A program made the translations under genes and the position numbers. A stretch of 64,000 nucleotides of DNA from the NCBI GenBank assembly GCA_004524445.1, contig SDNP01000017.1:1-64000 (forward strand), in the 5' to 3' direction. Positions 17,823 to 32,535 of the stretch are shown here, in pieces. The notes under the pieces are model-generated. The model ran no database searches and was not told the DNA's origin. It saw only the letters and a list, made by a program, of their open reading frames with translations. The DNA comes from Candidatus Thorarchaeota archaeon (GTDB lineage Archaea; Asgardarchaeota; Thorarchaeia; Thorarchaeales; Thorarchaeaceae). The number at the start of each line of letters is the position of its first letter. The first letter of the stretch is position 1.

Positions 17823-18233
17823 ATGAAGAAATCTTCTATCCCCGTTCTTGTTCTGCTTTTTTCATTAATGTTCAATCTAGGATTCTTCATTGCATATACT
17901 CTTGGCAATCATGTAAGCACAGGGTGGTCGCTGGTTGATATAGGCCCAGCAGTGATTCAGGACTCCTATTATGGTGGAGCAATAGCATTGGAGTCGCCAT
18001 TTGGGATGATTGGAGTGGTGCCAGGTGGCTATTCACCATATTTTGGCAATCCGCTTCAAAATCCGAGCTATCTACCTTATTCTCAGTGGATTGACAGCCG
18101 AGTACCAATTGAACTAGCGAACCCGTCAGTCGACATGAATATGCTTTTGGTGGCAGTGATTCTACTTGTCATTCCCATTTTCTTGGTCTATGCGATAGGG
18201 AGGAGGTCCTATGGGGCTACAAAAGCACAGTAA
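17823..18233 (+). CDS. Hypothetical 2-TM protein
   Basis: SD GAGGTG; TM at both ends; overlaps the permease start. Confidence 0.65.
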   Translation: MKKSSIPVLVLLFSLMFNLGFFIAYTLGNHVSTGWSLVDIGPAVIQDSYYGGAIALESPFGMIGVVPGGYSPYFGNPLQNPSYLPYSQWIDSRVPIELANPSVDMNMLLVAVILLVIPIFLVYAIGRRSYGATKAQ

Positions 18234-29310: not shown

Positions 29311-29406
29311 AAAATCGAGTCATAGGATATGTTATCCTATCCGTTAGTAGTCGGGAGCACATTGATATTAGGGCAAACAATCCTATTCTTTGAGGCATGA
29401 TTAGTT

Positions 29407-30216
29407 CTGAAATTAGAGGATCTAAAGGCACTCCGCTGTCCCAAATGCAGCAAAAAGATGCATCTAACCGAGGTTTTGGAGCAGGAGGAGTCCATTGTTA
29501 CTGGAGTGGTGACCTGCGAAAAGGGGCACCTCTGGTACATTGAGAATTCGATAATTGATTTGTTATATCCACCCCTGAGGGAAGAGGACAGAAAATGGGT
29601 TGCTGAATACAACAGAATGGCAAAGGATTATGATGAAGCTGTTAAGAACTATGACGATTGGCTGCAAATTGACATGATGAAAGAACGAGAACACCTTGCC
29701 CAGTTTCTGCCAAATACTGGCCACATCAATATCCTAGATGCCAGTATCGGTACAGGCGCCAACTTCATCGCACTTGAAAACACTCTGCAGGATCAAGTAT
29801 CTAGACTATCGATGCATGGGTTGGATGTTTCAGACGGGATGCTAGAGGTCTGTAGGTCGAAGTTCGAGTCGGTCGACCTGTATGTCAACCTTGTAAGAGG
29901 AAACATTTTCAACATGCCATTTCGGAGTAACTACTTTCATATTGTAGTACATACCGGTGGATTGAACACATTTTCTGAAAAAGAAAGGTTCCTGCAGGAG
30001 ATGCTCAGAGTTGCAGTAAATGAAGGGACCATTGTTGTAATTGACGAGGGGATATCACCGAAGATTAGAAATGAAGAAAGGGGAAGGTCAATTATTGAAG
30101 AGAATTCTCTTTTCGGTACAAGACCGCCACTTGAATGCCTTCCTGAAGCAGCGCGAGATGTGGAAGTGGACTATATCATGAATGATACGTTCTATCGAAT
30201 TGTCTTCAAAAAGTAG
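29407..30216 (+). CDS. Trm112-like Zn-finger fused to a UbiE-like SAM methyltransferase
   Basis: LRCPKC..CEKGH..IENSIIDL; ILDASIGTG, GLDVSDGML; start inferred at CTG 29407. Confidence 0.8.
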   Translation: MKLEDLKALRCPKCSKKMHLTEVLEQEESIVTGVVTCEKGHLWYIENSIIDLLYPPLREEDRKWVAEYNRMAKDYDEAVKNYDDWLQIDMMKEREHLAQFLPNTGHINILDASIGTGANFIALENTLQDQVSRLSMHGLDVSDGMLEVCRSKFESVDLYVNLVRGNIFNMPFRSNYFHIVVHTGGLNTFSEKERFLQEMLRVAVNEGTIVVIDEGISPKIRNEERGRSIIEENSLFGTRPPLECLPEAARDVEVDYIMNDTFYRIVFKK

Positions 30217-30236: not shown

Positions 30237-30279
30237 AAAAAAAGGAAGTCTGTGCTCATGTCGCTTCGAGCATGAGCAC
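30237..30279 (-). terminator. Hairpin terminator (possibly bidirectional)
   Basis: GTGCTCATG..CATGAGCAC (30252-30279) followed by a 7-U tract on the minus strand. Confidence 0.7.
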
Positions 30280-30381
30280 TTCTTTGCATGAGAGCCCACG
30301 ATCTCTATTTGGGTCTACCGAGTGACAATCAGTATCTCTATCTTCAGATCGGTTTGATTGATAAGGGGATACCATTACCAT

Positions 30382-30462
30382 CTACCTTCTGAAGTAAGAG
30401 TAAGCGATTGCATTGGTTGAGATGTGCGTCTTCTCATTCTTATTCTTCTTAGCAATAACCAT
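30382..30462 (-). CDS. Small peptide B (26 aa) MVIAKKNKNEKTHISTNAIAYSYFRR
   Basis: GGAGGT SD upstream; C-terminus paralogous to peptide A. Confidence 0.6.
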   Translation of the reverse strand: MVIAKKNKNEKTHISTNAIAYSYFRR

Positions 30463-30467
30463 CTAGT

Positions 30468-30575
30468 TTACCTCCGATATTGGTATGCGTAGCCAAGAGC
30501 CTCAGTTGTCTGAACCTTGCCCATTGGCATAGTTTTCGAATGACTCATTTTGGTTGCGTTCTTTGCTTCAGCCAT
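30468..30575 (-). CDS. Small peptide A (35 aa) MAEAKNATKMSHSKTMPMGKVQTTEALGYAYQYRR
   Basis: TATA-like TTTATAT about 35 nt upstream; C-terminus paralogous to peptide B. Confidence 0.6.
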   Translation of the reverse strand: MAEAKNATKMSHSKTMPMGKVQTTEALGYAYQYRR

Positions 30576-30595
30576 GTTTTTTCACAAGAATACTG

Positions 30596-30663
30596 TGTGT
30601 TAAACACATATAAATATTGCGTATGGTTTGGTATCTAAACCATTTATTAACAAACTATTTGTT
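30596..30663. promoter_or_regulatory. AT-rich divergent promoter with inverted repeats
   Basis: TGTGT-TAA-ACACA 30596-30608; ATGGTTT-N7-AAACCAT 30623-30643; AACAAA-CTA-TTTGTT 30649-30663. Confidence 0.6.
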
Positions 30664-30746
30664 TCACAACAAAATATTGTAATTTACGTTTGTAGCATAA
30701 TCGTTAACCTTATAATCGGTGTTTCCTATGTTTAAACGTTATAGAG

Positions 30747-31520
30747 ATGGGTCTAGCTGCAGTAGAAATAGGTGGAAAGAGCTTGAATGCGGATATTCCA
30801 GATAGCCTAGAAGGCATTGAGTTGACAGAAGAAGGAAAAGGACCTCAAGAAGAGATTGTTTTTATAAAAGATCCCGAAAGAGCTGCGGAGCTGGATGACA
30901 GCGCAAGGCTTTCGATTCTTAGAGTATTGAGGGAGGGAATACCCGACACTGTCACTAGCAAGAGACGGGATGAAAAGACAGGAGACTTAATCATCCGTCA
31001 ACGTGAAATCCAACGGCACGCACTATCGGTAGTAGAAATAGTGAAACAGTCAAAGAAGGTGGAGGGAGCAGAAGAGGTTACCAAGAATCAAGTATATCAT
31101 CATCTCCCAAAACTCATTGATGCCAACTACGTAGTTAAGTACGGTACTGTCACGACAGGCAAGCGAACTACGGATTACTATCGAAGAACAGCAAAAGGGT
31201 TCGTTGTGACTACTGGTATGCTTGACGCTGATGAAAAGGTACTCAAGAAGAAGAGCAGAAACTATGTTGAAAAAATCACCCAAAAATTCGATATCGAATT
31301 GACTGAGGAGCAACAGAAAGAGCTGGCAAATCTTCTGTTACAAAAATACAAACTGGAAATGCAACCCAGACGAGAAGTGGCAAATCTGATTAGAGGAGAT
31401 TTGGCTGATAAGGAACTCCTCGACCTGTATGAGTTTCTTATTGAAATTCAGTCACTCGGACAAGAAGCCTACATAGATCTTCATAGGCGGATGCGGGAGA
31501 TCATCTTCTCAAACAATTAG
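30747..31520 (+). CDS. ArsR-like winged-helix transcriptional regulator
   Basis: ARLSILRVL, LSVVEI..TKNQVYHHLPKLIDANYV, TDYYRRTAK. Confidence 0.8.
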   Translation: MGLAAVEIGGKSLNADIPDSLEGIELTEEGKGPQEEIVFIKDPERAAELDDSARLSILRVLREGIPDTVTSKRRDEKTGDLIIRQREIQRHALSVVEIVKQSKKVEGAEEVTKNQVYHHLPKLIDANYVVKYGTVTTGKRTTDYYRRTAKGFVVTTGMLDADEKVLKKKSRNYVEKITQKFDIELTEEQQKELANLLLQKYKLEMQPRREVANLIRGDLADKELLDLYEFLIEIQSLGQEAYIDLHRRMREIIFSNN

Positions 31521-31581: not shown

Positions 31582-31953
31582 CTAGCTTTGCTTACCTAAG
31601 GATATTGCATGATACTGGAGGTCAACTATAGCAAGCCCGGGGTCAGAATCGGGAGCTGCCCATGCAACCATTGACCGATTCCTATCCACATTCGAAACTA
31701 GCAGGTGCCCCTTTTCGCCTGCTGTAGCCACATAGTAATCTTCCGACGATTCTATATGAGAGTAATCGATTCCAGCAAGTGTGACTGTTGGAACTTCATT
31801 TTTTGCCATCTCGACAATCGTAGGGCCATCTTCAACGACGTTCCAATTTGATGTCTGCCAGATGACGGTCGAGGATTCAATAACGGCCAGGGCCTTAATG
31901 TTTGGATTACTTGTGTACAGAGAACTCCAAATTTCCTCAATCAGAGAGCTCAA
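31582..31953 (-). CDS. Profilin-like protein (divergent paralog)
   Basis: ALAVIE..VIWQTSNWNV..TLAGIDY; 123 aa. Confidence 0.75.
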   Translation of the reverse strand: MSSLIEEIWSSLYTSNPNIKALAVIESSTVIWQTSNWNVVEDGPTIVEMAKNEVPTVTLAGIDYSHIESSEDYYVATAGEKGHLLVSNVDRNRSMVAWAAPDSDPGLAIVDLQYHAISLGKQS

Positions 31954-32038
31954 TGTTCCTGTTCACACCCTTACCAGATAACCAGTGGAATGCATACACG
32001 TGGGCAGATGCGCCATATAGTTTGTCTGCAAGACAGCC

Positions 32039-32419
32039 CTATATTTTGCCTTTCAGCGCTTTGGCCGCTCGATCTATATCGACATAGACGCTGTCAGGTG
32101 CTGCATCAGCACTAGCCCATGCAACAACCCATTTATCATCCTCAATCCTTGCAAGGATGAGAGTTCCATTTCCTTGTACATTTCTTGCAACCAGACTCTC
32201 AGGGCTTGTTCTAATGGTGCTGTACTTCACATCATTCTGTTTCACACTTGCAGATTGATTATTCACAGCAGAGATTAGTTGCTGTGCATCGGCACTTAAA
32301 TCCCAATTGTTGCTCTGCCAGAGAACAGATCCATCAGCTTTAATCACTCCAAAGGCTTGGACCATCTGGTTCGACGCTTCATATGCTTGTGTGTATGCTT
32401 CCATAACAGGATCAGACAT
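32039..32419 (-). CDS. Profilin (Asgard type)
   Basis: FGVIKADGSVLWQSNNWDL, VKYSTIRTSPESLVARNVQGNGTLILA; ATG at 32419. Confidence 0.85.
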   Translation of the reverse strand: MSDPVMEAYTQAYEASNQMVQAFGVIKADGSVLWQSNNWDLSADAQQLISAVNNQSASVKQNDVKYSTIRTSPESLVARNVQGNGTLILARIEDDKWVVAWASADAAPDSVYVDIDRAAKALKGKI

Positions 32420-32535
32420 TTCCAATTTACTCCGTAGACTTATCCATTCAGTTCCGAGGTTGTAGCCGCACATATTGTATAAAAAACAATTCACGACGGA
32501 ACAGATTCAAATATTCCAATTGTACTTTTAGCAGT

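Follow-up and report, generated by a model that had tools for sequence, protein, structure and literature searches.

PH1932 of Pyrococcus horikoshii (PDB 1ULY, 2CWE) is an ArsR-like regulator composed of a winged helix and a helical C-terminal domain, and is not known to be accompanied by a peptide cassette. In the Rgg/SHP and ComR/ComS circuits of the RRNPP family, a short peptide gene with a basic N-terminus and a conserved aromatic C-terminus lies beside the gene of its TPR-repeat regulator (divergently for Rgg/SHP), with transporters nearby. Tandem paralogous micro-ORFs, each with an SD and arranged in a stand-alone regulated operon, occur in the staphylococcal PSM-alpha operon and in multi-peptide leaderless bacteriocins, where the peptides are amphipathic and membrane-active. 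Small soluble proteins acting in trans include the small acid-soluble spore proteins (SASPs), whose genes are scattered, multi-copy and hairpin-capped, and the transporter regulators SgrT, MntS and Methanosarcina sP36. HalA-type bactofilins, such as the halofilin HalA of Haloferax, shape haloarchaeal cells and have reported homologues in Asgard archaea (PMC11459167).

The locus described here lies in a 64,000-nucleotide stretch (the window) of Candidatus Thorarchaeota archaeon contig SDNP01000017.1 (assembly GCA_004524445.1), and shares some features with each of these systems. Its regulator has PH1932 as the only significant sequence match (E 3e-9) and as one of two significant fold matches, both the same protein, but identity is about 20% and a conserved beta-hairpin insertion and an N-terminal extension are present. 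Unlike Rgg/SHP, the regulator has no TPR domain, the peptides are hydrophilic, three ORFs of two families are present, and dispersed copies occur under what is inferred to be a second regulator. The GRAVY of the peptides (-0.66 to -0.81) contrasts with the membrane-active PSM-alpha peptides. They have no detected sequence likeness to SASPs or the soluble transporter regulators, are half the size of SASPs and are polycistronic. The associated multi-bactofilin protein, like HalA, has no obvious leader, and no co-regulated peptides were seen in the halofilin work. The system failed membership in every known family tested, and resembles the Rgg/SHP, PSM-alpha and SASP systems only in layout.

The 530-bp gap between a methyltransferase gene and a winged-helix gene holds three minus-strand ORFs: A (30468-30575, 35 aa), B (30382-30462, 26 aa) and C (30256-30381, 41 aa from the ATG at 30381, but probably starting at 30375 to give 39 aa). 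A sequence-only reading had proposed a hidden operon of paralogous micro-peptides here, with its own promoter, operators, terminator and divergent regulator, and this observation is confirmed. A is basic, with a conserved N-terminus (family MALxxNxR) and the C-terminal motif STxAIxYAYxYRR; B is a paralogue of A with a shorter linker. C is acidic, with the conserved tail LTxEEVLx[WL]EAT and no detectable similarity to A. The strict A/B motif occurs exactly twice in the 2.8-Mb genome, both here, and a looser version gave 2 matches in the genome and 0, 0 and 0 in three shuffled genomes. Four details of the sequence-only reading required correction. ORF C, regarded there as weak, has a tail conserved in 45/60 genomes; the hairpin, placed beyond the unit, overlaps the last 8 codons and stop of C; the conserved operator is at 30623-30643 rather than the palindrome over the TATA box; and the first Tyr of the proposed YxY signature is not invariant (Y 72, H 35, F 16 of 148).

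Coding status was tested by comparison with related genomes. The same cassette lies upstream of the regulator's orthologue in most family genomes. Profiles of A/B and C hit 59/60 and 45/60 Thorarchaeota genomes, respectively (1-14 A/B matches each, a few of them weak), and A/B hit 0 of 191 genomes from other Asgard families. Several genomes with weak or no hits still carry divergent 30-36-aa peptides behind the same promoter. The invariant Ala of A/B and Thr of C use all four codons, third positions in the motifs vary freely, and pN/pS is 0.39 and 0.38, indicating selection at the protein level; these tallies come from related genomes, are not independent tests and overstate the evidence. Among close A pairs the ratios were 0.48 (N-terminus), 0.59 (middle) and 0.37 (C-terminus), so that both ends of A are constrained. 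A is 33-36 aa and B 26-32 aa, both with a median charge of +5, whereas C is about 29-40 aa with a charge of -3, and none has a hydrophobic stretch. Extra, divergent first ORFs of 33-38 aa (for example with a THESLY-like motif) precede the canonical A or B in some cassettes (loci L007, L059, L105, L126, L133 and L243; L, G and C denote the loci, genomes and contigs of this analysis, G000 being the present genome). In L006, peptide B seems to start with CTG.

RNA signals are overlaid on the coding sequence. The last codons of A and B, which encode the RR-stop, spell GGAGGT or AGGT and lie 5-7 nt before the next start, serving as SD sites for B, as the sequence-only reading had noted, and for C. 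Distances this short allow translational coupling in archaea, whereas about 20 nt nearly abolishes it (PMC10666635). Arg is still selected, as CGG is as common as AGG at the penultimate codon and Gly was not seen among the common endings. The 3′ hairpin (30252-30279, minus strand) is conserved across cassettes and overlaps the last codons and stop of C in most of them (39/46 with z below -2; 69/74 pair the Val-Leu codons). Four loci moved the hairpin yet kept the motif of C, so both constraints act. A terminator-like U-tract follows (30237-30243, minus strand), and similar tracts follow C in most cassettes.

The cassette is repeated within genomes. In G000, further A-B-C cassettes are present on C9 and C30 and an A-only copy on C7, giving four loci. 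Of 88 distinct cassettes, 45 were called A-B-C, with A-B, A-C, A-only and four-ORF forms also occurring. Copies within G009 or G023 are nearly identical although the sites are shared between species, which suggests homogenisation by gene conversion. Cassettes often sit at contig ends, as expected if near-identical copies break assemblies, and copy numbers are probably underestimated. Neighbours of dispersed copies vary, no enzyme recurs, and 59 of 88 cassettes face a convergent gene.

Two promoter classes precede the cassettes. At the present locus, a TATA box (30607-30614, minus strand) is predicted from spacing to give a 5′ leader of about 10 nt. Next to it lies the class I operator palindrome (30623-30643; consensus RGTTTG-N5-CAAACY, one mismatch here), the one strong site in this genome (24.8 bits; next best 14.9). 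A second palindrome (30649-30663), of uncertain role, contains a class I half-site but did not score as a full site. The divergent winged-helix regulator (30747-31520, plus strand), with an inferred TATA-like box at 30710-30715, carries the beta-hairpin insertion and a helical C-terminal domain. The class I site is present at loci of the regulator's orthologues, stays where the cassette is lost and is absent at seven paralogue loci, so the divergent protein is its likely binder. Class I also precedes one MFS transporter family in 17/30 loci, against a background of about 0.001, and TldD/PmbA, DUF362 or GNAT genes in single lineages. Class II (AGTCACA-N3-TGTGAC with GTGAC repeats before TATA) precedes the dispersed cassettes, the same MFS in 11/30 loci, and a multi-bactofilin gene in 28/28 loci with upstream sequence. 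The latter encodes a single-copy protein of about 415 aa with three bactofilin matches in 56/60 Thorarchaeota genomes (L240:1581-2822 and orthologues L282-L311), possibly a HalA-like cytoskeletal protein; it was not found in the 90%-complete G000. An HTH_45/Sso10a-type wHTH gene lies directly before it in most of those loci and encodes the candidate class II factor. Both regulator-operator pairings are inferred from co-occurrence. GGTCAC/GTGACC repeats recur downstream of some cassettes and before MFS or GNAT genes (L036, L042, L110, L120, L399 and G000:C7 near 18110-18140), possibly as a third binding site, and two promoters of G025 (L218, L223) share a class I-like palindrome plus a further conserved block before TATA, possibly as targets of a regulator paralogue.

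Class II extends beyond Thorarchaeota, occurring in four other Asgard families (13/19, 9/26, 2/5 and 1/1; controls near zero), one of which includes Heimdallarchaeota AB_125. There it is predicted to drive MFS homologues, the bactofilin and monocistronic, conserved basic ORFs of 30-34 aa. These form families of their own, found in 26/31 genomes, often multi-copy and partly as tails of about 90-aa ORFs, sometimes in tandem (the Heimdallarchaeota-containing family; L368, L370, L372, L373, L375), and in 4/5 genomes (family f12; L378, L380, L381, L384, L386). Their aromatic-basic tails are in a similar register to A, but the similarity was not significant by HMM or hhalign, and homology is unproven. 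Viral contigs held neither the peptide nor the class II promoter.

The flanking genes could not be told apart from inherited synteny. The convergent SAM methyltransferase (29401-30216, plus strand), with a Trm112-like N-terminal domain, is convergent at 31 cassette loci but was not found in three genera that keep the peptides (0/15), and is probably not part of the system. Its frame extends upstream through its CxxC motif without ATG, GTG or TTG (29401-29457), and a CTG start at 29407 is possible. On the regulator's other side, a tandem profilin-like pair (31582-32494; second copy without a Pfam hit), conserved beside the regulator in most loci, a small conserved ORF and an OPT transporter gene are equally conserved.

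The peptides matched no described family. Pfam, PDB sequence and ESM Atlas searches gave nothing usable, no Rfam family reached its gathering score, and literature searches found no description of them. A search of 1.84 billion proteins returned 37 short family-like hits and one low-complexity false hit, and this peptide A sequence is absent from a 15-billion-protein collection, consistent with gene callers mostly skipping these ORFs. Peptide mimicry of the regulator was not detected. HbYX proteasome-gate mimicry was rejected because only some B peptides end Hb-Y-X and the terminal Arg codons are SD-shaped.

The sequence-only interpretation, that the module supplies signalling peptides, modified-peptide precursors such as Tyr-crosslinked RiPPs, or small regulators, is only partly supported. 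Sequence evidence supports a translated, regulated multi-peptide operon with its own promoter, operator and 3′ hairpin, tied to the divergent regulator; the RiPP reading is not supported; and the dispersed copies, the second promoter class and the regulon had been missed.

The favoured explanation, held tentatively and at less than even confidence, is that the cassette encodes cytoplasmic micro-protein effectors acting in trans. What the sequences themselves establish is that three coding ORFs are under purifying selection, that genomes carry multiple copies, and that there are two promoter classes, of which class I travels with the regulator, both precede one MFS family and class II precedes a multi-bactofilin gene. 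The rest, including expression, is inference. In this view the PH1932-like protein would repress its own gene, the cassette and the MFS from a palindrome at the BRE/TATA until released by a ligand, while a second factor, probably the Sso10a/HTH_45-type protein, would activate the dispersed copies through 11-12-bp GTGAC repeats upstream of TATA. A short, hairpin-capped mRNA would be translated with close coupling from A to B to C. Each peptide would be a disordered charged linker ending in a short N-capped helix that docks on a conserved, as yet unidentified partner, with several copies raising the dose, and the likeliest role would be to tune a cell-state switch in shape, envelope or transport. 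The absence of a hydrophobic segment gives no obvious export or membrane insertion, and because most cassettes end against a convergent gene no downstream gene is there to control. The co-regulated MFS and bactofilin are the first candidate targets, although co-regulation does not show physical contact, and a fold search with the MFS returned only generic matches at 11-15% identity with no substrate hint. C is missing from many loci, so there is no obligatory A-B-C complex.

A broader reading is not excluded but is unlikely on present evidence. It supposes an ancient Asgard cell-state regulon, present in Thorarchaeota, a Heimdallarchaeota family and at least two further families, that couples a bactofilin-type cytoskeletal protein and an MFS transporter to short basic peptides, possibly one fast-evolving superfamily. 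The peptides would be motif-bearing regulators or exported signals controlling cell shape or state, expanded in Thorarchaeota into homogenised multi-copy operons with a second, ligand-sensing input. A peptide-based control system of this kind has not, to our knowledge, been described in archaea.

Among the alternatives, an exported signal survives best, although it is also unlikely. A housekeeping protease would trim A/B, the MFS would export the aromatic-Arg C-terminal fragment, and OPT would re-import it to release the divergent repressor in an Rgg/SHP-like positive-feedback circuit. The adjacent, divergent layout fits, with control by the regulator inferred from the operator. The MFS lies under both promoter classes and often directly behind an A or A-B cassette, a class I site precedes TldD/PmbA in 4 genomes of one genus, OPT lies 1.4 kb from the regulator, and divergent regulators sit with divergent peptides. 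However, no hydrophobic export segment was found, the regulator's C-terminal domain is PH1932-like rather than TPR, OPT is no more conserved than the profilins, and many near-identical copies are unusual for a pheromone. Peptide divergence did not clearly track the C-terminal domain better than the DNA-binding domain (48/500 permutations). Complex prediction of the regulator dimer with peptide A gave a score of 0.00, which is no evidence either way.

Slightly less likely, the peptides may be abundant nucleic-acid- or ribosome-binding proteins for dormancy or stress, resembling SASPs, protamines or hibernation factors. A and B have a median net charge of +5, A keeps a tight length, and the scattered, multi-copy, homogenised genes with strong SD sites and a stable 3′ hairpin are as for high-dose products. 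This reading is weakened by the lack of any Pfam, PDB or Atlas match and by the acidity of C, and it leaves co-regulation with a transporter unexplained. A likeness to histone loops amounts only to generic helix caps, and the middle segments are hydrophilic and variable.

A role as cis-acting leader or arrest peptides is doubtful. Nascent C-terminal motifs would stall ribosomes at the stop codon, controlling reinitiation and the hairpin overlapping the stop of C, and so read-through or mRNA stability. Conserved residues do lie in the last 12-13 codons, A is about one exit tunnel long, the hairpin overlaps the end of an ORF (C only), and some A-B cassettes lacking C end within 5 nt of an MFS start. 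However, the cassettes are not consistently upstream of a co-oriented regulated gene, since 59 of 88 face a convergent gene and same-strand neighbours are unrelated, and the N-terminus of A is also under selection.

A RiPP, with MALxxNxR as leader and a Tyr-rich core cross-linked or methylated by an enzyme encoded elsewhere, is more doubtful still. A leader-spacer-core layout of fixed length is present, and a methyltransferase and MFS genes are frequent neighbours. An orphan PqqD-radical SAM-SPASM protein (G000:C46:7143-8573; L330, L334), mostly 71-79% identical across Thorarchaeota, exists in 62/85 family genomes; no precursor was identified for it, and a 131-aa conserved gene lies divergent to it in some genomes. 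This rSAM has no class I or II site and no cassette nearby, and was not found in the peptide-rich G025, G032 (both single-contig), G018 and G028. No enzyme recurs near the 88 cassettes, no modifying enzyme was found clustered or co-regulated with the peptides, and no P450 or YcaO was found in 5 genomes. The second Tyr is present in 130/148 sequences (Phe in 16) and the first in 72/148.

Programmed amber read-through joining B and C into one protein of about 70 aa is very unlikely. The B-C junction is an in-frame TAG in 43 of 61 cassettes, but 13 are out of frame, C keeps its own start codon and an SD spacer of 6 nt gives the same frame. No PylB exceeded the cut-off in 61 genomes, no tRNA-Pyl was found at default threshold, TAG is the commonest stop codon, and the three 69-70-aa database fusions are gene calls with TAG read as Q. 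A non-coding RNA or repeated DNA element with incidental ORFs is largely refuted, for although the hairpin constrains the Val and Leu codons of C and the RR codons follow the SD consensus, third positions vary freely, the four displaced hairpins left the motif of C intact, and no conserved structure covers A or the A/B junction.

These ORFs are near-universal and multi-copy in a whole Asgard class, which points to an overlooked small-protein programme in close relatives of eukaryotes. The analysis gives two operator motifs, a candidate regulator for each, and regulons linking the peptides to a cytoskeletal protein and a transporter, with all parts small enough to test in vitro. If the peptides control shape or cell state, they show a layer of short-motif regulation in the lineage that includes the closest known relatives of eukaryotes. 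The class II sites also precede, in several Thorarchaeota (L396, L402, L404, L406), the gene of an approximately 365-aa protein with no Pfam match and an acidic-then-basic N-terminus; the copy in L374 may be from a mis-binned Thorarchaeota contig.
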